Source of the DNA: Enterobacteria phage GiZh
Sequence record: NC_054903.1
DNA length: 64,000 nt
Strand: one strand, 5' to 3'
Both the position numbers and the translations under genes were made by a program. Positions 580 through 62,854 of the stretch are shown in pieces. Position 1 is the stretch's first letter. The number at the start of each line of letters is the position of its first letter. The notes under the pieces are model-generated. The model was not told where the DNA came from, ran no database searches, and saw only the letters and a program-made list of their open reading frames with translations.

Positions 580-1674
580 ATGGCAATTGTTAAAGAAATA
601 ACTGCTGATTTAATTAAAAAGTCCGGTGAGAAAATTTCAGCCGGGCAGAGTACTAAATCAGAAGTAGGAACTAAAACATACACAGCCCAGTTTCCAACTG
701 GGCGTGCTAGTGGTAATGACACTACAGGGGACTTCCAGGTAACAGATCTATATAAGAATGGATTATTATTTACTGCATACAATATGTCATCTAGGGATTC
801 TGGAAGTCTTAGATCGATGAGATCTAACTACTCTTCTTCATCTTCGAGTATTTTACGTACAGCTAGAAACACTATTAGTAGTACAGTATCAAAACTATCA
901 AATGGATTAATATCAAATAATAATTCAGGAACAATAAGTAAAGCTCCTATCGCAAACATTCTTTTACCGAGATCTAAATCTGATGTTGATACATCATCAC
1001 ATAGATTTAATGATGTTCAAGAAAGCCTTATCAGTAGAGGCGGAGGTACTGCTACTGGAGTGCTAAGTAATATTGCTTCAACCGCAGTATTTGGGGCGTT
1101 GGAAAGTATAACACAAGGTATAATGGCTGATAATAATGAACAGATTTATACGACAGCCAGAAGTATGTATGGCGGTGCTGAAAATAGAACTAAAGTGTTT
1201 ACATGGGATTTGACTCCACGTTCAACAGAAGATTTAATGGCTATTATTAATATCTATCAATATTTTAACTATTTTTCTTATGGTGAAACAGGTAAATCTC
1301 AATATGCTGCTGAAATAAAGGGGTATTTAGATGATTGGTATCGTTCTACGTTAATTGAACCTTTATCTCCAGAAGACGCAGCTAAAAATAAAACACTATT
1401 TGAGAAAATGACATCGAGCTTAACTAACGTTCTAGTAGTTTCAAATCCGACAGTTTGGATGGTGAAAAACTTTGGTGCAACATCTAAGTTTGATGGAAAA
1501 ACGGAAATATTTGGTCCATGTCAAATACAGAGCATCAGATTTGATAAAACACCTAATGGTAACTTTAACGGATTAGCTATTGCTCCAAACCTCCCTAGTA
1601 CATTTACTCTCGAGATTACTATGAGAGAAATTATCACGTTAAACCGTGCTTCTTTATATGCGGGGACTTTTTAA
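580..1674 (+). CDS. 48: Baseplate-tail tube junction protein gp48
   Basis: 364 aa, same length as T4 gp48; position between 29 and 54; AGGA-type RBS before ATG. Confidence 0.8.
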   Translation: MAIVKEITADLIKKSGEKISAGQSTKSEVGTKTYTAQFPTGRASGNDTTGDFQVTDLYKNGLLFTAYNMSSRDSGSLRSMRSNYSSSSSSILRTARNTISSTVSKLSNGLISNNNSGTISKAPIANILLPRSKSDVDTSSHRFNDVQESLISRGGGTATGVLSNIASTAVFGALESITQGIMADNNEQIYTTARSMYGGAENRTKVFTWDLTPRSTEDLMAIINIYQYFNYFSYGETGKSQYAAEIKGYLDDWYRSTLIEPLSPEDAAKNKTLFEKMTSSLTNVLVVSNPTVWMVKNFGATSKFDGKTEIFGPCQIQSIRFDKTPNGNFNGLAIAPNLPSTFTLEITMREIITLNRASLYAGTF

Positions 1675-2639
1675 TGTATTCTTTAGAGGAATTTAATAAT
1701 CAAGCAATAAACGCAGATTTCCAACGTAATAATATGTTTAGCTGCGTTTTTGCAACAACTCCATCAACTAAAAGCTCTTCGTTGATAAGTTCAATTAGCA
1801 ACTTTTCTTATAATAACTTGGGCCTAAATTCAGATTGGTTAGGATTAACTCAAGGTGATATTAATCAGGGAATTACTACGCTAATTACAGCTGGCACACA
1901 AAAACTGATAAGAAAATCAGGGGTTAGTAAATATCTTATTGGTGCTATGAGTCAGCGTACTGTCCAGAGTTTATTAGGCTCATTTACAGTTGGTACATAT
2001 TTAATTGACTTCTTTAACATGGCATATAACTCATCTGGATTGATGATATACTCTGTAAAAATGCCAGAGAATAGATTATCTTATGAAACTGACTGGAACT
2101 ATAATTCTCCTAATATTCGTATAACCGGAAGAGAATTAGACCCTTTGGTTATTTCATTTAGAATGGATTCAGAAGCTTGTAACTATCGTGCAATGCAAGA
2201 CTGGGTTAACTCTGTTCAAGACCCAGTAACTGGATTGCGTGCTTTGCCACAAGATGTCGAGGCAGATATTCAGGTTAATCTTCATGCTCGTAATGGATTA
2301 CCTCATACTGCGGTGATGTTCACCGGATGCATTCCAGTGTCAGTGAGCGCTCCTGAGTTATCATATGATGGAGATAACCAAATAACTACATTTGATGTTA
2401 CTTTTGCGTATAGAGTCATGCAGGCTGGGTCGGTTGATAGACAAGCTGCGCTTGAGTGGCTTGAATCTGCTGCTATAAATGGCATTCAAAGTGTTCTCGG
2501 AAATAGTGGAGGTGTTACTGGATTATCTAATTCGCTTTCACGACTTAGTAGATTAGGAGGAACTGCGGGGAGCATTTCAAACATTAATACTATGACAGGA
2601 ATTGTCAATTCGCAAAGTAAAATATTAGGAGCAATATAA
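1674..2639 (+). CDS. 54: Baseplate tail tube initiator gp54
   Basis: 321 aa (T4 gp54 about 320 aa); start overlaps gp48 stop (TAATG); followed by hairpin terminator. Confidence 0.8.
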   Translation: MYSLEEFNNQAINADFQRNNMFSCVFATTPSTKSSSLISSISNFSYNNLGLNSDWLGLTQGDINQGITTLITAGTQKLIRKSGVSKYLIGAMSQRTVQSLLGSFTVGTYLIDFFNMAYNSSGLMIYSVKMPENRLSYETDWNYNSPNIRITGRELDPLVISFRMDSEACNYRAMQDWVNSVQDPVTGLRALPQDVEADIQVNLHARNGLPHTAVMFTGCIPVSVSAPELSYDGDNQITTFDVTFAYRVMQAGSVDRQAALEWLESAAINGIQSVLGNSGGVTGLSNSLSRLSRLGGTAGSISNINTMTGIVNSQSKILGAI

Positions 2640-2667: not shown

Positions 2668-2958
2668 TTATTTACGGAATGAAATAAAAGCAGCAACTGA
2701 AGCAACTAAACTGTCTTCAATATAAACTTCAATTTTTACCGGAGCTTCTGACTCAAATTTACCTGTTACTACACCTTGGAAAATACTTTCAGTTTGTTCT
2801 GGCTTTGAAAAATTTTCAGAAGGAAAAATTCCGAACTTTTTATCTGTTCCAAAAATTTTAATAAATTCATCGTAAACTGCTTCATTAAAAGCATTATCAG
2901 CAGGAATAACGCCTTCAACTACAAGTTCTTGACCTAAAAAGCGCAAAGAAGATTTCAT
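2668..2958 (-). CDS. Hypothetical protein (96 aa), downstream of alt
   Basis: ORF with early-type promoter and GAGGA RBS upstream; no recognisable motif. Confidence 0.5.
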   Translation of the reverse strand: MKSSLRFLGQELVVEGVIPADNAFNEAVYDEFIKIFGTDKKFGIFPSENFSKPEQTESIFQGVVTGKFESEAPVKIEVYIEDSLVASVAAFISFRK

Positions 2959-2984: not shown

Positions 2985-3020
2985 AGATTACTATAACACA
3001 ACACGAGGGACTTGTAAACT
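2985..3020 (-). promoter_or_regulatory. T4 early-type promoter (-35 TTTACA, 17-bp spacer, -10 TATAGT on minus strand)
   Basis: Plus-strand tgtaaa at 3013-3018 and actata at 2990-2995; part of a 54-bp cassette nearly identical to 18248..18301. Confidence 0.5.
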
Positions 3021-5076
3021 ACATTTTGAACTTTTTAGACATTCCGTTAATGTTAACCAAAGAAGCTAAGATTTGAGAAACTTCGTTTTCCTCTTCTTTT
3101 GATTCTTCTACAAGGAATTGATTAAATCCAGCCATTGGACGAACTTCACCAGTTTCCATTAAATGGTCGCCATCATATACTGATTCTTCTAATTGTTCAG
3201 AAGGAGGAACGATTGTACCTTCGATTAGATACTTATTATAAGCAGTTTCTTTCATAAAGTACGTACTTACTTTATTAATCTTCAGTAAAATTCCACGTGG
3301 TAGAATAACTTCAGCTTCTGATGGAAATCCTGATAAATGACCTGGAACGATAACTTTGATTCGCTCAGCTCCTTTAATTACCATACCCACGCTAGTTTCA
3401 GCATCTTCATTAGCATATGTAGAATGACTACCCATATACATCAAATCTTCAGCATCAACAGAACCTTCTCCTTCACCAGAAAATACTGCGCCGGAATCAT
3501 CTAGAGCCATATAGTTTTTACCATGCTCACCGAAGATATTTGGTTTAAGCGATGTTGATACGAAGTTCTTGAAATAGAACATTTTATTTTCAATATTATG
3601 ACGTAAAGTTTTAAAGGTAACTTCTTGTCCACGGTAAAGTGTAGTTCCCGGAGGAAGAACTGATCCTTTGGCGAATGCAGAATCCAGCGTCTCGATGTGT
3701 TTAATAGCTCGTTCCATGTATTCTTCACGGGTAGAATCTGGTTTACCTAAAAGGAACGAGTTCATTTCAACATATGAATCTGCACAATAATCTTCAATTA
3801 CATCAGACTCAGCCTGAGTTAATCCTTTTGGAGTTACTTCAGTACTTGCATATTCATATGCCTGGGCAGCAGATTCATTAATCAATTTATAAATGCCATT
3901 CATGACAAATTGAATAATAGCTGTCTTTTCATCTGGTGTGGCTTTAGAACCTTTAACTAAATCATTGATAATTTTCTTAATAACATCAAAGCTATTAGAA
4001 ATATTAATATCAGCAAGATCGCTTAAAATTTTATCAGTTTTATAATCAAAGAATTCTTTATTCTTTAAATATTCTTGAGAACCTTGATATGTTATATCGC
4101 TCTGCAACTTGATGGATGGATCACGTAAACGTGCATGGGCTAATGCAATATGATTTCGGAAGTTTTCTAGTTCATAATCGCTAGATTTAAAACGAGAAGC
4201 ACTTCTCATACCACCGATAGCTCCTTTGCTGAAGTTTGAACCAATCTGAATAACGCCAGAGTTCATTGGTCCTTCTGCTTTATATACCGGAACTTTAGAT
4301 TCAAACTCTTGATATTTCTTGGCAGCGAAGCTATCACCCTGAAGTGAAGCATCGACAGTAGAATATTGAGCTTGTGCTGCTAATCGACGACTAATTTTAG
4401 TTTTCTGAATAACAGCTTGATCCGTGCGCTTATCATTTTCTAAGGCAATAGAAGCAGCAACAGCAACAGCTTTAGGAACAGCATTACCTGTTTTAACATC
4501 CACATAAACATCACCAACCTTTGATTCAACTTTTGTGAATAACTCAGTTGAAATAGGAGGTACACCTGGAATGTCTTCTAAATTGGCATTTTTACGGTAA
4601 ACCATAATATATGCATACTTTTTATCATAATCCCAGATTTCCTTTAAAAGAACATATCGACCTGCTCCTTTAGTACGTACTAAACGGTCAGCAATAACTT
4701 GCATTTGACGAGCTGCGCCATTTGTTTTACTTTTTAGTACGCGGAATAAGCATGCATCAATTTTATACTGTTTCATTGTTTGAAGAGCAGTATCAAAAAC
4801 GGCATTAATGACACCAATTGGATTTCCACCTAAGTTTTTAAGTTTAACTAATGATAGTTTCTCATTGACACCTATCATTACGATATGCATCATTTTATCG
4901 CCTGGCTTAACGTTTTTATTTGTATCACCACCAGAGGTGTATGTACAAAATCTAAATCCAGGAAGCACACTTTCTTCGCCGGCTTGAATAGCAAAAATTT
5001 GAGGTATTTTATGCTTAGGATTTAAGTTAACAACCGGCGCCGAAGCGCCGTCAAATAATTCTGTAATAAGTTCCAT
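3019..5076 (-). CDS. alt: Alt-like ADP-ribosyltransferase, paralogue A (685 aa)
   Basis: Length close to T4 Alt (682 aa); R-S-E ART motifs (YRGQ, FVSTSL, EAEVILPRG); position between 54 and DNA ligase. Confidence 0.8.
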   Translation of the reverse strand: MELITELFDGASAPVVNLNPKHKIPQIFAIQAGEESVLPGFRFCTYTSGGDTNKNVKPGDKMMHIVMIGVNEKLSLVKLKNLGGNPIGVINAVFDTALQTMKQYKIDACLFRVLKSKTNGAARQMQVIADRLVRTKGAGRYVLLKEIWDYDKKYAYIMVYRKNANLEDIPGVPPISTELFTKVESKVGDVYVDVKTGNAVPKAVAVAASIALENDKRTDQAVIQKTKISRRLAAQAQYSTVDASLQGDSFAAKKYQEFESKVPVYKAEGPMNSGVIQIGSNFSKGAIGGMRSASRFKSSDYELENFRNHIALAHARLRDPSIKLQSDITYQGSQEYLKNKEFFDYKTDKILSDLADINISNSFDVIKKIINDLVKGSKATPDEKTAIIQFVMNGIYKLINESAAQAYEYASTEVTPKGLTQAESDVIEDYCADSYVEMNSFLLGKPDSTREEYMERAIKHIETLDSAFAKGSVLPPGTTLYRGQEVTFKTLRHNIENKMFYFKNFVSTSLKPNIFGEHGKNYMALDDSGAVFSGEGEGSVDAEDLMYMGSHSTYANEDAETSVGMVIKGAERIKVIVPGHLSGFPSEAEVILPRGILLKINKVSTYFMKETAYNKYLIEGTIVPPSEQLEESVYDGDHLMETGEVRPMAGFNQFLVEESKEEENEVSQILASLVNINGMSKKFKM

Positions 5077-5079
5077 GAT

Positions 5080-7176
5080 TTATCCTTGAACGAACTTGTA
5101 AGGCATGTTTGTAATATCTATGCAAGACGCAATAATTCCAAGAGATGATTCTACTTTTTGTTTAACATTTGATGAAACAAATGATGCAAAGTCAACTCTG
5201 TCTTCTATTTCAATATCACCTGTCATTGCAACTACTTCGCCGGTTTCCATTAAATGGTCTCCGTCATAGATTACCGATTCGGTGAGTTCTTCGGTGGTCA
5301 TAACTTCAGCTTGAATGAGTTTTGTATTATTAGACGTGGTTCCGTCATTATTAGAAGCATCAGTTATTTTATTAACTTTGACCATCAATCCGCGCGGTAG
5401 AATAACTTCAGCTTCTGTTGCTATTCCGAGATTTCCTGGATATACAACATTAACTTTATGAGCTCCATCAATTGCCCATCCTATTTGAACTTTAACGTAT
5501 TCAGGATTTTCTTTATACGCTCTTATTTCGTTTGGATTAATAGTTATTCCTTCTTCATTTTTATCAACTGTCAATTCATTACGAGCTTCTGGTTCTAAAA
5601 GACCAATACCAGCATGTGTAATTCCAAAACGTCCAAAAATGATAGGAGTTAAAGAAGTAGATACAAAATTTCTGAAATAGAACACTTTATTTTTAACTAG
5701 TGCTTCGTATATAGGAGCAGTCATGCTTTGAGCACGATAAACTGTAATGCCTTCTGGTATACGGTCACCATTTTCAAAAGCTGAATCTAAGTTATTTATA
5801 GCAGATTCAATTTCTTTTTCACTCATTACATCATATCGTTCTGGATTGTAGCGTCCTAAAAGAAGATTATTGATGTCAGTATATCCTGAACCGCAATACT
5901 CTCTAATGCCACGCTTTTGTGATGGAGTATATTTAGAACCATCACGGGCAATAGTAATATCAATCATTGGACCTGCACCAATTCCAGAGAAACTATAAAT
6001 CATTCTTTTGAGGAATTTAGTTTTTGTCGCGTTCCAGGAATTTTTAGTTATTTCTTCCCAGACTTCATCTGGCTGTCCTTTACGTGTTTTATTATGTTTA
6101 TCAAGCCAATTATCTTTATATTCTTCAAAGAATTGATTAACAGCTGCTGCGTATTTCTCTAAACATTTTATTGAAGTAGTTGGTTCATTTTTAATCGCAT
6201 TAAGAATTACATCTTTAATTTTTTCAGAAACTTCATTAACCTCACTTTTTGAAAAGAATTTATAGTCATAATGAAGTTCATCTGCAGTTCCTTCAGCAAT
6301 AATTTTTGCTGCCTTAGTTTTAGAAGCTAATGAATTAATTCCAAGCTTCATTTCTTCTGCTTCGGGAATTAAAGGAGCCGTAGCAGGTTTATTGAAATTA
6401 GCTGCGGTAGATTCATACTTTTGGAATAATTCACTTTCAAATCTAGAAGATTCTAATGATTGACTTTGTGCAATTGCTCTACGGGAAATTTTAACTTTAA
6501 CGATTACAGCTTGGTCAGAACGTTTATCGTTTTCTTGCGCAATAGATGCAGCAATTGCCTCATTTTTAGTTACTTGAGCTCCAGTATCTTTATTGATATA
6601 AACATCACCAACCTTTGATTCAACTTTAGTAAAGAGCTCGGTACTAATTTCAGGAACTCCTGGAATGTCTTCTAATGATACATTTTTGCGATGTATAAGA
6701 ATATATGCATACTTTTTATCGTAATCCCAGAGTTCCTTAAGAAGGACGTATCTACCACCTGAACGACTACGGATAAGTCTATCAGCAATAAGTTGAATTT
6801 GTCGAGCTTGACCAGCAGTTTTAGACTTAAGAATACGGAGCATACAGGCATCAATTTTATACTGACGCATCGTTTGCATCGCAACAGTAAAAACTGAATT
6901 GATGTAATTAATTGGGCTTGGACCGAGACCTTTTAATTTAGCAATTGAACCTTTAGCAGTTAATGTAAAAGGAACAATATGCATCATTTTATCGCCCATC
7001 TTTAAATCGCGATTAGTATCACCTCCAGATGTATAGGTACACAAACGAAAGCCTGGTTGTTCAATTGCGTCATCAACATGAACTGAAAAAATTTGCGGTA
7101 TTTTCTTCTTTGGATTTAAGTTTGTAATCGGAAGAGTAGTATCTTCGTCAAATAATTCTGTAATGAGTTCCATCAT
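5080..7176 (-). CDS. Alt-like ADP-ribosyltransferase, paralogue B (698 aa)
   Basis: N-terminal 230 aa and C-terminal ART region align with paralogue A (MELITELFD..., YRAQ, FVSTSL, EAEVILPRG); central region divergent; TATAAATA late promoter upstream. Confidence 0.75.
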   Translation of the reverse strand: MMELITELFDEDTTLPITNLNPKKKIPQIFSVHVDDAIEQPGFRLCTYTSGGDTNRDLKMGDKMMHIVPFTLTAKGSIAKLKGLGPSPINYINSVFTVAMQTMRQYKIDACMLRILKSKTAGQARQIQLIADRLIRSRSGGRYVLLKELWDYDKKYAYILIHRKNVSLEDIPGVPEISTELFTKVESKVGDVYINKDTGAQVTKNEAIAASIAQENDKRSDQAVIVKVKISRRAIAQSQSLESSRFESELFQKYESTAANFNKPATAPLIPEAEEMKLGINSLASKTKAAKIIAEGTADELHYDYKFFSKSEVNEVSEKIKDVILNAIKNEPTTSIKCLEKYAAAVNQFFEEYKDNWLDKHNKTRKGQPDEVWEEITKNSWNATKTKFLKRMIYSFSGIGAGPMIDITIARDGSKYTPSQKRGIREYCGSGYTDINNLLLGRYNPERYDVMSEKEIESAINNLDSAFENGDRIPEGITVYRAQSMTAPIYEALVKNKVFYFRNFVSTSLTPIIFGRFGITHAGIGLLEPEARNELTVDKNEEGITINPNEIRAYKENPEYVKVQIGWAIDGAHKVNVVYPGNLGIATEAEVILPRGLMVKVNKITDASNNDGTTSNNTKLIQAEVMTTEELTESVIYDGDHLMETGEVVAMTGDIEIEDRVDFASFVSSNVKQKVESSLGIIASCIDITNMPYKFVQG

Positions 7177-7196
7177 ATCCTCTCTAGTGTTTATTC

Positions 7197-7204
7197 TATT
7201 TATA
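7197..7204 (-). promoter_or_regulatory. Late promoter TATAAATA (minus strand) upstream of Alt paralogue B
   Basis: Plus-strand tatttata at 7197-7204 is the reverse complement of the T4 late promoter consensus, 21 nt upstream of the ATG at 7176. Confidence 0.55.
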
Positions 7205-7209
7205 AAATT

Positions 7210-7227
7210 AAAGGCCCGAAGGCCTTT
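7210..7227 (-). terminator. Hairpin aaaggcc-cgaa-ggccttt (UUCG tetraloop in minus-sense RNA)
   Basis: Perfect 7-bp stem; identical hairpin recurs at 53856..53873. Confidence 0.5.
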
Positions 7228-7414
7228 AATAATCTATTGGTAAGAGAGTACGATATATTTCAAACTTTGGACCTTTTTCATAGGCATCAAATGTTTCTGT
7301 GAATTTATTATAAGCATATGCATCTATAAATTCAATCATAATTTGTGATACAGAAGTAGAAACATCTCCACCTTCTTTTTGAGCCACGACAATTGTTTCT
7401 AAGTAAGCTTTCAT
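7226..7414 (-). CDS. Hypothetical protein (62 aa)
   Basis: Small ORF whose start overlaps the ligase stop; no motif. Confidence 0.4.
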   Translation of the reverse strand: MKAYLETIVVAQKEGGDVSTSVSQIMIEFIDAYAYNKFTETFDAYEKGPKFEIYRTLLPIDY

Positions 7415-8874
7415 AGACCAGTTACCTCATGAAAATCACCAAATACATCCTCGAATGTATTAGCTTTAGTTTTATCTTCACGTAAACGAATCGCAATCGG
7501 AAGAAATAATTTAACGTAATCGGTGCGGCCATCAGATTTTAACCAACCATTGCATTCGCACTCTAGAATTTTTCCAATATAATAATTTTGGTTTTCCATA
7601 ATGCGAGTACGGTCAAGTTCATGCGATTTTACACCGGCTTTATCTTTTAAGCCTGAACCAGCATTTACTTTAATTTTTCCACACTCTGATTCAAGAATAA
7701 ATCCACCCGCTTTAGTAGGGTCTTTACGGTGAGGATAAATTCCTACAATTTTTAAATCAACATCAATTACTTCTTTAAATTTATAAAGATTTTTTGAACG
7801 AGCATTTTCCCATAATCCATCGATATTTTTGAGAATAATACCTTCAAGACCTTGGTCAATATACTTTTTATAAATTACCTTAGCTTCATCTAGGTTATTT
7901 ACTACCTGGTTTTCAATTAAAATTACTTTATCATATCCTGATGTCATTTGTTCTAGTTTAGAAAAACGTACATCATATTTTAAACGAAACGCCGGAAGAC
8001 CGTATATTTCTACCAACGGGACATAATCCCAAACCTGAAACTTCATGCATTGAGCTTCTTTTTCAGAAATGGTTCCTTTTAAGGATTTATTGGCGATTCC
8101 ATTAGAAGTAGTACGAGATTCCGCTACTTCGGCGAATTCTTTAGCTTTACTAATTTCAGGATAAGCATCAAAAAGAAAATCTAGGCCTTCTGGTTCCTTT
8201 TTAACTTGCTCATGGTATACCAATTCGCCATCAATTAACACACCTTCTGGATGAATCTGGCGGGCTTCAGCAGTCATTTTGATTAATTCTTCCTTAAGAA
8301 GATCTAATCCTAGATATTCATTACCAGCTCGTGATAAAAGACGAACATCATCTAATTCATCGCCTCGGACTTCAGCAAAACACCGGGCTCCATCTGCTTT
8401 TAACTGTGCAAAGGCTGGAAATTTGATATTCTTACTAATGCCTTTTTCATCATAAGAACTTGCCAGCATTTGAGGTTGTTCAGGAATTAAACCTGGCCAA
8501 ACTTTGTTTGCAATAGATACTGAAGCACCGCATTCAAGGTCTCGCATCATCACCCGACGCAAAACTTCAACATCATCTTTTTTACCGTCAGCAATATATC
8601 CAGTTAATTCCTCAATTGCCGCATTTCCGGTCAATTTCCGAGTAGCTAACGTGAATTCAATGAAGTCAAGCATATCGGTAAGAGTCAACATTCCAAAACT
8701 CTGGGTAGCAATACTAGGTTTAGGCCATTTCTTGATATAATACTGTAACCCACGAGAATAAGTCAGACGATATACTCGTTTAAGCAATTCATTATCTTTA
8801 TTCTTTTCAAGAATTGCTTGCTTCTGCTTAGTTGAACCAATAGATGCTATTTCGTTCAGAATTTTAAGAATCAT
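7411..8874 (-). CDS. 30: ATP-dependent DNA ligase gp30
   Basis: 487 aa, same as T4 DNA ligase; adenylation motif KADGAR (FAQLKADGARCF). Confidence 0.95.
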   Translation of the reverse strand: MILKILNEIASIGSTKQKQAILEKNKDNELLKRVYRLTYSRGLQYYIKKWPKPSIATQSFGMLTLTDMLDFIEFTLATRKLTGNAAIEELTGYIADGKKDDVEVLRRVMMRDLECGASVSIANKVWPGLIPEQPQMLASSYDEKGISKNIKFPAFAQLKADGARCFAEVRGDELDDVRLLSRAGNEYLGLDLLKEELIKMTAEARQIHPEGVLIDGELVYHEQVKKEPEGLDFLFDAYPEISKAKEFAEVAESRTTSNGIANKSLKGTISEKEAQCMKFQVWDYVPLVEIYGLPAFRLKYDVRFSKLEQMTSGYDKVILIENQVVNNLDEAKVIYKKYIDQGLEGIILKNIDGLWENARSKNLYKFKEVIDVDLKIVGIYPHRKDPTKAGGFILESECGKIKVNAGSGLKDKAGVKSHELDRTRIMENQNYYIGKILECECNGWLKSDGRTDYVKLFLPIAIRLREDKTKANTFEDVFGDFHEVTGL

Positions 8875-9140: not shown

Positions 9141-9976
9141 TAGAATGCTCCTTGGAAAATATTATCACCACTAGTAGGTCTATTATACAAATACTCTATG
9201 CCACCGGGTTTAATATAGTTCCATGTCTGAAAAGGATGCGTCTGATATGGATGATATAGATTATAAGGATTAAATCCAGGAGTTCTCCAGGTAGTGTTCC
9301 AAGGAAAAGAATCGTTTTTAATCATCTTCTCAATTACATCTTTTATAACTTTTTCACTATCAAAACTTTCTTTATTTTCCTTCGATGGAAAAAGCTTATT
9401 CTCTACATCATTCCATGTATAAACTCGCTGCGCAGTTTTTGGAATATTGTCACGCTCTCCTCGAGCCATCCAATAAACAGGAACATTTAATATTTCACTT
9501 GCATGATCGCAATGGTGAGCGAGATCGTCAATATAACAAATCACGTTATATTTCTCTTTTGCCTTTTTGAACAACTCTTCTTTTGAAGAATCATGACCAC
9601 ACATCAGTACTTCTGAGAAGGCACCAGGAAAAAGAGCGTTCAAATTAAATTGACGATTCAGCAGAGCGTCAATAGAATCACCCAATGCTGTAACAGCTAC
9701 AAAATTATAATCTTCTTTTAATTTGTTAATTACACATAGAGCATCTTTATATGGAGACAAGTAACGAATAAAATCTGATCGATTATATTTTTCAATTAAC
9801 TTGACACCAAGTTCTTCATCGCAATTAAAGAGCTTACCAGGAGAAATAAATTTTTCGTCCTGAATCATTTTTAAAATATGTTCTAATGGAAGATTATATT
9901 TTTGGGCAAAATAAGGAAGACCTGATTGCCAGCTTAAACATACACCATCAATATCAGTCAAAATAGTAGGCTTCAT
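9140..9976 (-). CDS. HAD-superfamily hydrolase-like protein (278 aa)
   Basis: N-terminal motif ILTDIDGV matches HAD motif I (DxDG[TV]); start overlaps upstream stop. Confidence 0.55.
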   Translation of the reverse strand: MKPTILTDIDGVCLSWQSGLPYFAQKYNLPLEHILKMIQDEKFISPGKLFNCDEELGVKLIEKYNRSDFIRYLSPYKDALCVINKLKEDYNFVAVTALGDSIDALLNRQFNLNALFPGAFSEVLMCGHDSSKEELFKKAKEKYNVICYIDDLAHHCDHASEILNVPVYWMARGERDNIPKTAQRVYTWNDVENKLFPSKENKESFDSEKVIKDVIEKMIKNDSFPWNTTWRTPGFNPYNLYHPYQTHPFQTWNYIKPGGIEYLYNRPTSGDNIFQGAF

Positions 9977-10437
9977 AGAGAGTCTCTTAGTAGGTTTAAC
10001 ACATCAATAAATTCAGCTTCGGTTAGTATTGTATCATCTTTTGTTAGACCACTAGCCATGCTGTGCTTCAAAACTTTTCCTTTTGAGGCTTGTAAGGCAT
10101 CACGAAACCCCTTGTTTTGAATCGCTGCTTCAAAATATGCATTTGTGTATAATTCTTTCCACGCCGGGGAGTATCTTGAAAACGGAACTCCAATCCAGAA
10201 GAGGGTCCCACGGTCCTGAGCTCTAGCATAAGACCTTCCAGCTTGTTGGGCGGCAAGCCCGGATAACCCAAATATACGACGTTGTTGTTCAACATTTTTC
10301 ACCTTACACCCTTGGAGGAATCCTTCAAGACCTCCAAATTGAATACCATCCATAACGAAAGGCCATTGGGCGAAATTACTTAATGCACATGATGGCCACC
10401 TAAAATTGCTTCTAATCTCTAACTCAGACATTTTCAA
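9973..10437 (-). CDS. NADAR / YbiA-like (DUF1768) protein (154 aa)
   Basis: Signature F..WPSCALSNFAQWPFVMDGIQF..LEGFLQGCK resembles YbiA/NADAR motif FSNFxxWP..DG..F.S.EHYFQAQK as I recall it. Confidence 0.55.
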   Translation of the reverse strand: MKMSELEIRSNFRWPSCALSNFAQWPFVMDGIQFGGLEGFLQGCKVKNVEQQRRIFGLSGLAAQQAGRSYARAQDRGTLFWIGVPFSRYSPAWKELYTNAYFEAAIQNKGFRDALQASKGKVLKHSMASGLTKDDTILTEAEFIDVLNLLRDSL

Positions 10438-61631: not shown

Positions 61632-62234
61632 TTATAGATTAAATCCTTCAAAATCAAGAGTATAGATAGTGTATGTTGAATACTTTTTGTACTCATATCT
61701 ATCTGCAATTCTAAATACACTTCCAGCTGGTATCATTACTTCTTGTTCATCTGAAACTAATTCCATATTACGATAACGATGGCTATCCGGAAACTTAAAG
61801 TTTGGATTGTATTCTTTACAGCGTAGAGCTTTTATAGCATACTCCTGGAAATTGAATACCATAGGAGCTTTGAATTCAAAAATAACTTGTGTGTTATACT
61901 CTAAACCGGAAGCAAAATGTAGAGCTATATTTTTATCATATGAAGCTGATACGACTTTATCAAATGTAATAATATCAATTCCTTGATTTAATACTTGCTT
62001 AGTCTCAGCTGGAACACCTCTCCAAAGAGGTTTATCGTTTGGAACCAAACGAGATTTGATTATTTCATTTAACCAAGTATGGTCATCTGGTTTATTAGTA
62101 ATACAATGAATTAAAAGTTCAATTTCAGATAAATTAAACCCTTCAGAAAGTAATTCTTCACGAATAGAAGCACGCACCGATGCATCCATTGATTTTATTT
62201 TAAAATCTTTTAGTTGCATTACTGAGTATTTCAT
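61632..62234 (-). CDS. modA: ADP-ribosyltransferase ModA
   Basis: 200 aa; R-S-EXE motifs (LWRGV, ASYDK..FASG, EQEVMIPAG); adjacent paralogue modB. Confidence 0.8.
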   Translation of the reverse strand: MKYSVMQLKDFKIKSMDASVRASIREELLSEGFNLSEIELLIHCITNKPDDHTWLNEIIKSRLVPNDKPLWRGVPAETKQVLNQGIDIITFDKVVSASYDKNIALHFASGLEYNTQVIFEFKAPMVFNFQEYAIKALRCKEYNPNFKFPDSHRYRNMELVSDEQEVMIPAGSVFRIADRYEYKKYSTYTIYTLDFEGFNL

Positions 62235-62854
62235 TCAACTACCTCAATATCATAAACTTTAAATGTTCCAAATGAATCGTGTAATTTTTCTTTTGAAATA
62301 GAAGTTATTCTATACTTTCCAATTGGAATCATCCATTCTTGTTCATGTACAATCATCATTAAGTTATCAGTTCTTTCTGAATCTAACCCATCAGTATCTT
62401 CATACGTGTACTTAAACTCAGTATTAGGAGAAGAAAGTATAATATCGCTGATATGGTCAGAATAATTAAAAGCTTTATCAGTTTTTAAGCGAAGTACTAT
62501 TTCAGTGAAATATTCATCATAAGAAAAAGAACACGCTGTATGCAAACTAGTAGTAAATGAATCTACCCTGTTCGTTGAAAACACTTCTCCAACTTGCAAA
62601 TCTTTAATAAGTTCTTTTGTCGATTTTGATATACCACGATATAATTGATAAGGCGATTTAGTTAAATGCTTTTTAATGATTTTATTCAACTGTCTGTGAA
62701 GAGCTTCATTCTTTTTGGCTTCCATACATTGCCAAAGAACAGACTGCTCAAAGTCAGTAAATTTTTCACAGACTTTTTTATACATATCATATTGAAAATC
62801 AACGCTTTCAGCTTTTATAGATAACTGTTCAACATCTACAGGATTAATAATCAT
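62231..62854 (-). CDS. modB: ADP-ribosyltransferase ModB
   Basis: 207 aa; LYRGIS, STNR, EQEWMIPIG; start preceded by early-type promoter (gtaaac 62905-62910). Confidence 0.8.
   Translation of the reverse strand: MIINPVDVEQLSIKAESVDFQYDMYKKVCEKFTDFEQSVLWQCMEAKKNEALHRQLNKIIKKHLTKSPYQLYRGISKSTKELIKDLQVGEVFSTNRVDSFTTSLHTACSFSYDEYFTEIVLRLKTDKAFNYSDHISDIILSSPNTEFKYTYEDTDGLDSERTDNLMMIVHEQEWMIPIGKYRITSISKEKLHDSFGTFKVYDIEVVE

Follow-up and report, generated by a model that had tools for sequence, protein, structure and literature searches.

Here, we describe the alt locus in a 64,000-nucleotide stretch of DNA from Enterobacteria phage GiZh (NC_054903.1; 'the window' below), a segment of a Tequatrovirus (T4-like) genome in which two intact, adjacent open reading frames (ORFs) on the minus strand, together spanning 3019-7176, encode Alt-like ADP-ribosyltransferases (ARTs). 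The upstream ORF is the orthologue of T4 alt and the downstream ORF is a second gene, alt2. The pair is the ordinary two-gene alt locus of T-even phages and is already known at the level of annotation; the best explanation of the locus as a whole, and one that we hold with high confidence, is that it encodes two packaged and injected ARTs with differing targets and exchangeable cassettes.

Two paralogues and the T4 remnant

The original prediction for this DNA described two adjacent minus-strand Alt-like ORFs, at 3019-5076 (685 amino acids, aa) and 5080-7176 (698 aa), with a shared N-terminal region of ~230 aa, unrelated centres and intact R-S-E catalytic motifs, and in each of these respects it holds up. 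For alt we use the second ATG, at 7173, which is the start annotated in T4. In pairwise alignment, Alt and Alt2 are 41% identical overall (BLASTP, E = 4e-163), a figure that conceals a very uneven distribution: residues 1-238 are 56-75% identical per 40-residue block (66-68% over the N domain of ~235 aa), residues 240-410 are heavily gapped and only 4-29% identical, the ART region is 35-50% identical outside a variable insert that follows the STS motif, and the last 60 residues are 33-55% identical. Comparison of the two centres gave no BLASTP match at E < 1e-3 and a profile-profile probability of 4% in hhalign; they have no detectable homology and are unrelated as far as sequence methods can see.

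Membership of the ART family is clear for both proteins, which match Pfam ADPrib_exo_Tox (PF03496; E = 4.5e-37 for Alt and 5.8e-20 for Alt2) and, over their full lengths, PHROG 802 (E = 9e-273 and 8e-257); a PF26846 assignment is also available, precomputed on a 99%-identical cluster representative (P0001). Neither protein matched NCBIfam, and a sequence search of the PDB returned nothing for Alt2 and only weak CdtA-type ART matches for Alt. In an alignment of 57 diverse members of the Alt family, the catalytic residues are invariant, with R480, S505, E587 and E589 of Alt corresponding to R482, S507, E587 and E589 of Alt2, and they sit in the motifs YRGQ/YRAQ, FVSTSL and EAEVILPRG. Among R-S-E ARTs, the ExE motif is a lead towards arginine specificity. 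Five N domains gave just two sub-threshold chance matches in Pfam at E values up to 10, and a 15-sequence N-domain profile gave none in the PDB; GNAT acetyltransferases were considered for this domain, which gives a weak signal of the GNAT type.

An AlphaFold 2 model of full-length Alt2 (predicted local distance difference test score 83, predicted template modelling score 0.76) opens with a short helix at the N terminus, followed by an N domain of alpha/beta fold (residues 9-200), a centre made entirely of helices (202-415) and an ART domain (421-622) that contains an insert of low confidence at 518-538; the C-terminal tail is poorly ordered and includes one helix. The modelled ART domain matches the Vis toxin, C3, Certhrax, CDTa and VIP2 (Foldseek, E = 6e-7 to 3e-4), and the whole model superposes on that of SP18 Alt with a template modelling (TM) score of 0.71-0.78 at 31% identity, which suggests that the Alt architecture is retained even at low sequence similarity. 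As tandem paralogues with products of ~76 kDa, alt and alt2 would share a plan in five parts (Table 1): a 6-residue propeptide, then the alpha/beta N domain and the all-helical centre, followed by a mono-ART of the C3/VIP2 type with R-S-ExE residues (arginine-type) and a C-terminal propeptide of ~55-65 residues.

The novelty that the original prediction implied does not survive, since T2 and T6 hold both genes at the same lengths, with protein identities to the window of 98-99% for the upstream copies and 99% for the downstream ones, and the second copy is present, and annotated, in ~400 records. The nearest records in the phage collection are ~96-97.7% identical to the window at best. At least 80% of the 4.9-kb locus is present in 337 records of the collection, and 400 contain the Alt2 centre with an identity of 95% or more, a further 44 having it at ~45%. 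Common annotations of the pair are 'Alt-like RNA polymerase ADP-ribosyltransferase' (twice), alt_1/alt_2 and Alt/Alt2, the second copy in Bp7 being called alt'. Partial and full-length duplications of alt in T4-like phages have been noted before (Nolan et al. 2006, PMC1524935), and two paralogous Alt-like proteins at 43% identity were described in a 2026 paper (PMC13600099). Some records call the alt genes 'thymidylate synthase' or 'DNA ligase'.

The contrast drawn by the original prediction with a single alt in T4 is correct insofar as T4 has one full-length alt, and incomplete in that T4 also carries a remnant of the second copy as alt.-1 and alt.-2. The DNA of these two short genes is near-identical to the first ~350 nucleotides (nt) of alt2, with a 1-nt deletion that shifts the frame, and most of the remainder of alt2 is missing (Table 1). 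Alt2 is also a better match than Alt to the PHROG families derived from the alt.-1 and alt.-2 fragments, and the T4-type junction occurs in 91 of 497 records (T4 and 90 others). The T4 record annotates alt.-1/alt.-2 as a 'duplication of the first part of gene alt'; these alignments favour reading them as what is left of a full-length alt2, and the single alt of T4 is shown to be a derived state, caused by the 1.69-kb deletion together with the frameshift.

Candidate effector cassettes and their proposed exchange

Although orthologous, GiZh Alt and T4 Alt are only 70% identical overall. Over their first 238 residues the proteins are 99-100% identical (Alt2 matches this N domain of T4 Alt at 66-68%), and identity is 92-95% in the last ~65, with an interior that ranges from ~20 to 70% (~33-36% in the centre); at the nucleotide level, the C-terminal ~75 codons are 93-99% identical and the interior 39-76%. 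The closest relatives of the interior are found in another genus. The ART domain of GiZh Alt is 94-95% identical to those of Bp7 alt and QL01 gp200, from Dhakavirus, compared with 62% for that of T4 Alt, and nucleotide identity to Bp7 alt is 81-95% over codons 399-623 and 39-65% in the N domain. By nucleotides, the ART domain is 89-95% identical to Bp7 alt and its flanks are 96-99% identical to T4. The centre of T4 Alt is in turn 62% identical to that of Bp7 alt', and Alt2 pairs with QL01 gp198 (centre 47-48%, ART domain 52%). Nucleotide identity profiles switch sharply near residues 240-250 and 624-630, the second switch coinciding with the C-terminal cleavage site discussed below.

Identity in the N domain follows genus, being 68% between Alt and Alt2 in Tequatrovirus, 89-94% between Dhakavirus paralogues and 43-47% across genera, whereas for the centre and the ART domain it is the type of cassette, irrespective of genus, that governs identity. 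By this sequence comparison, the variable unit is the centre together with the ART domain, and the N domain and C-terminal propeptide on either side of it are specific to the lineage. As the centre and the ART domain vary together, the suggestion in the original prediction that the variable centre may define different host targets is plausible but too narrow. The N domain and C-terminal propeptide would form a delivery frame particular to each lineage, around an effector cassette (the centre and ART domain) that is exchanged by recombination among paralogues, phages and genera.

In Dhakavirus, the locus of QL01 (NC_028847; 1-5910) has three tandem Alt-like genes and that of Bp7 (3751-7890) has two. 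Within each of these genomes, the paralogues combine N domains that are 89-94% identical with unrelated centres, a pattern that suggests gene conversion or repeated cassette replacement in the Dhakavirus alt arrays. Across the 57 family representatives, the centres fall into ~30 groups that cannot be linked by BLAST. Taken further, injected effectors may be exchanged as cassettes in an array at the alt locus, with cassettes moving between paralogues and genera and with Alt2 as a separate injected ART directed at a host or defence target of its own; we put this forward tentatively, as a possibility that falls somewhat short of being probable.

A simpler account of the centre is that it is a fast-drifting helical spacer or scaffold, with specificity residing in loops of the ART domain, as in C3-like toxins. 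This would suit the all-helical fold of the model, the centres of the 57 representatives that are unlinked by BLAST yet mostly similar in length (127-203 aa), the superposition of the full-length model on SP18 Alt, and the fact that the ART domain also varies, with its insert after the STS motif. An unconstrained spacer is nevertheless a misfit with an Alt2 centre that is at least 95% identical in 400 records and evolves at a ratio of nonsynonymous to synonymous substitution rates (dN/dS) of ~0.02-0.12, and with a centre and ART domain that travel together as one cassette, and we consider the spacer account unlikely.

Predicted packaging and expression, and sequence constraint

T4 Alt is a protein of the prohead core, present in ~40 copies and injected with the DNA, and mass spectrometry has established that it is cleaved by gp21 after ITE-6 and LTE-619, losing 63 C-terminal residues (Ali et al. 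2017, PMC5694885). Motifs of the gp21 type are found at the equivalent positions in both GiZh proteins, as ITE at residues 4-6 and LTE at 630-632 in Alt and as ITE at 4-6 and LEE at 629-631 in Alt2, and the glutamate of the first site (E6) is kept in 55 of the 57 family members. Because both gp21 motifs of T4 Alt are kept, we infer that Alt2 enters the head, is cut down to residues 7-631 and is injected. Alt2 might instead be left out of the head and be a late enzyme that works in the cell producing it, its substrates being, for instance, host or phage proteins at the assembly stage. The literature searched yielded no virion proteomic evidence, and packaging is read from motifs alone, both of which leave room for such a role; the MELITE propeptide, the N domain (66-68% identical to that of Alt) and both gp21 motifs are nevertheless conserved as in the packaged T4 Alt, and we give an unpackaged Alt2 little credence.

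The late-promoter motif that the original prediction placed upstream of the first gene, TATAAATA, is present there (Table 1). The motif occurs eight times in the window against 8.9 expected, a frequency at the level of chance, and it is therefore its position, not its presence, that carries weight. The hairpin that it follows was read from the sequence by eye and was not listed by a simple terminator scan; a conserved predicted terminator upstream of alt has been reported (Nolan et al. 2006, PMC1524935). At the junction between alt and alt2, no separate promoter was identified, and T4 keeps the same junction, GGATAAATCATGG, ahead of alt.-1. Sigma-70-type matches in the window are likewise at chance (20 against 19.8 expected), and an early promoter is therefore not claimed. 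A second TATAAATA lies inside alt at 5793-5800 (minus strand), 720 nt before the alt stop and within A-I-N codons, and is present in all seven T2/T6/Bas-type alleles, which are too closely related for its conservation to inform, and lacking in T4 alt and Bp7 alt; the motif could serve alt2 as an internal late promoter, or be there by chance.

Drawn together, these signals would make the TATAAATA promoter upstream of alt the source of late transcripts for both genes, and alt2, which starts 3 nt past the alt stop, would be translated from a ribosome-binding site of its own. Both proteins would be built into the prohead core, trimmed by gp21 at ITE-6 and at an LxE motif near residue 631, and injected with the DNA, after which they would ADP-ribosylate different sets of host proteins. 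T4 Alt modifies RNA polymerase alpha and MazF.

Purifying selection acts strongly on both genes. In a comparison of five phages, alt2 has a dN/dS of 0.01-0.06 and alt one of 0.03-0.07, at a synonymous divergence of 0.09-0.19, and the constraint includes the alt2 centre. Alt2 as a pseudogene is ruled out by these ratios.

Evidence on function comes from a recent preprint describing HIDEN-SEQ, which includes Bas37, a phage whose Alt is the same allele as that of GiZh (~99% identical, dN 0.004). T4 Alt contributes to escape from the Mokosh type I defence and Bas37 Alt cannot substitute for it, phage growth on Mokosh type I being rescued by T4 Alt and not by Bas37 Alt (10.1101/2025.11.20.689424). 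These results indicate that Alt alleles differ in the host defences that they help to evade. Transposon insertion values for Bas37 are given in Extended Data Table 7 of the same preprint. For Alt2 (bas37_0032), saturation of TA sites is 0.71 ('Intermediate'), the mean control count is 44.5 reads per site and the log2 fold change on the clinical strain CFE331 is +0.12 (adjusted p 1); for Alt (bas37_0033), the corresponding values are 0.92 ('Non-essential'), 203.6 and -1.56 (adjusted p 0.00000). On our own reading of the table, the preprint being silent on Alt2, CFE331 is a strain on which Alt is needed and Alt2 is not, which argues against redundancy, and the values suggest that Alt2 matters on K-12.

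They bear directly on the possibility that Alt2 does no more than duplicate Alt, acting on the same targets, chiefly RNA polymerase alpha, and adding to the injected dose. Both copies do have the same domain plan, R-S-ExE residues and processing motifs. Their ART domains are, however, only 33-38% identical and their centres are without detectable homology, the Bas37 transposon data separate alt from alt2 both on CFE331 and at baseline, and the two lineages, both of them old, coexist in several genera; we find redundancy very hard to credit. That alt2 is a decaying duplicate, as the deleted remnant that is all T4 and 90 other records retain might suggest, can be dismissed with near certainty, given a 685-aa ORF intact in the window and in ~400 records, a full set of catalytic residues and a dN/dS of 0.01-0.06.

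Several points weigh against two injected ARTs with different targets, expressed as proposed. The literature searched holds no direct evidence of Alt2 in virions or of its enzymatic activity, and yielded nothing on Alt2 as a phage ADP-ribosyltransferase or on the virion proteomics of two-copy phages or Tequatrovirus ARTs; no target of Alt2 is known. We infer co-transcription of alt2 with alt solely from the 3-nt gap, and in Bas37 insertions in alt do not reproduce the low baseline counts of insertions in alt2; either these alt insertions are non-polar or alt2 has another promoter. The low alt2 counts could also arise from toxic truncated products and not from loss of function.

The surrounding locus and known systems

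The two genes have gene 30/alt.1 on one side and alt.-3/gene 54 on the other and lie downstream of a late-promoter motif, as expected for the Alt family (Table 1). With ModA and ModB, they bring the ART genes in the window to four, the number given in the original prediction.

Table 1. Coordinates of genes, protein regions and signals at the alt locus and of related genes elsewhere in the window
Feature	Position	Strand	Description
Gene 48	580-1674	+	
Gene 54	1674-2639	+	
alt.-3	2668-2958	-	DUF5498
alt2 (copy B)	3019-5076	-	685 aa; second Alt-like ADP-ribosyltransferase; 'Alt2' in BASEL records
Alt2 residues 632-685	3022-3183	-	Predicted C-terminal propeptide; counterpart of the 63 residues of T4 Alt after LTE-619
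alt2 segment missing in T4	3039-4728	-	Deletion of ~1.69 kb; blastn breakpoints 3038/3039 and 4728/4729
Alt2 residues 421-631	3184-3816	-	R-S-ExE ART domain (R482, S507-T-S509, E587-A-E589), ending at the gp21-type site LEE-631
Alt2 residues 238-420	3817-4365	-	All-helical central region; no detectable homology to the Alt centre
Alt2 residues 1-237	4366-5076	-	6-residue propeptide MELITE (gp21 site ITE-6) and conserved alpha/beta N domain
alt-alt2 junction	5077-5088	-	Last alt codons CAA GGA supply a Shine-Dalgarno-like GGA; then TAA, 3 nt and the alt2 ATG
alt (copy A)	5080-7173	-	697 aa (698 aa from the in-frame ATG at 7176); T4 alt orthologue
Alt residues 239-632	5278-6459	-	Candidate exchangeable effector cassette (helical centre and ART domain) of the T2/T6/Bas37 type; differs from the T4 cassette
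TATAAATA late-promoter motif	7197-7204	-	20 nt upstream of the first alt ATG, directly after the hairpin
Terminator-like hairpin	7210-7227	-	AAAGGCC-TTCG-GGCCTTT, G+C-rich, then a T-rich run; between alt.1 and the alt promoter
alt.1	7226-7414	-	Pfam PF24647 Phage_blade, E = 7.5e-29
DNA ligase gene 30	7411-8874	-	
ModA	61635-62234		99% identical to T4
ModB	62234-62854		95% identical to T4

Some of the neighbours merit brief comment. The ORF at 9973-10437 (minus strand) is 99% identical to T4 gp30.3, which has been named AdfN, a NADAR enzyme that reverses the ADP-ribosylation of DNA by DarT (HIDEN-SEQ preprint, 10.1101/2025.11.20.689424); a gene for an ADP-ribosylation eraser is therefore found 2.8 kb from the alt pair. 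The T6 RefSeq record and BW-1 label alt.1 a 'siderophore-interacting protein', in what looks like a mis-annotation that has been propagated. The alt.-3 homologue is 99% identical to bas37_0031, insertions in which are depleted on the uropathogenic strain CFT073 (log2 fold change -2.70, adjusted p 0.020; HIDEN-SEQ supplementary table). Just ahead of alt.-3, a sigma-70-like TTTACA-17-TATAGT with an upstream TG is found at 3018-2990 (minus strand), and between alt.-3 and the convergent gene 54 a hairpin at 2642-2663, its 9-bp stem flanked on either side by T runs, resembles a terminator that acts in both directions.

Functional studies of injected phage ARTs have almost all been done with T4, which lost Alt2, and most T-even phages, T2 and T6 included, probably inject two ARTs with different cassettes. 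If the locus is indeed a cassette array, T4 under-represents the T-even repertoire of injected enzymes. As T4 lost Alt2 and Alt alleles differ in the defences that they help to evade, identifying the targets of Alt2 would widen our view of early host takeover and counter-defence, a question that is not specific to this window.

Among the closest known systems is T4 Alt itself (gpAlt), the head-packaged and injected NAD:arginine mono-ADP-ribosyltransferase. GiZh Alt is its orthologue, with the same locus position, late-promoter context and cleavage motifs, and differs in its effector cassette; Alt2 shares the whole architecture, yet is a separate paralogue with 41% overall identity and an unrelated centre. 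Alt2 is the same gene, in length and position, as the Alt2, alt' or alt_2 of T2, T6, the BASEL phages Bas37, Bas39 and Bas44 and ~400 Tequatrovirus genomes, for which no characterizing paper was found in the literature, and it is full length where alt.-1 and alt.-2 of T4 are frameshifted fragments left by the deletion. The Dhakavirus arrays (alt and alt' in Bp7; gp200, gp199 and gp198 in QL01) likewise have tandem Alt-like genes at the same locus, with QL01 gp198 of the Alt2 type, and differ in having two or three copies, N domains that follow the genus and cassette types at different positions in the array.

Further afield, the C3-like and binary-toxin ARTs (Vis, C3bot, Certhrax, CDTa, VIP2 and iota) have the R-S-ExE catalytic fold in common with the Alt proteins, which differ in being without a B component or secretion signal, in their presumed delivery via the phage head, and in an N domain and centre that are specific to Alt. 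In their organization, the Alt proteins resemble the internal proteins IPI-IPIII of T4 and modular effectors of the polymorphic-toxin type, where a conserved delivery tag or frame is joined to hypervariable injected cargo, with processing by gp21 as for Alt. They differ in being large enzymes of low copy number (~40 per T4 head), with a frame made up of a 230-aa domain and a C-terminal propeptide.

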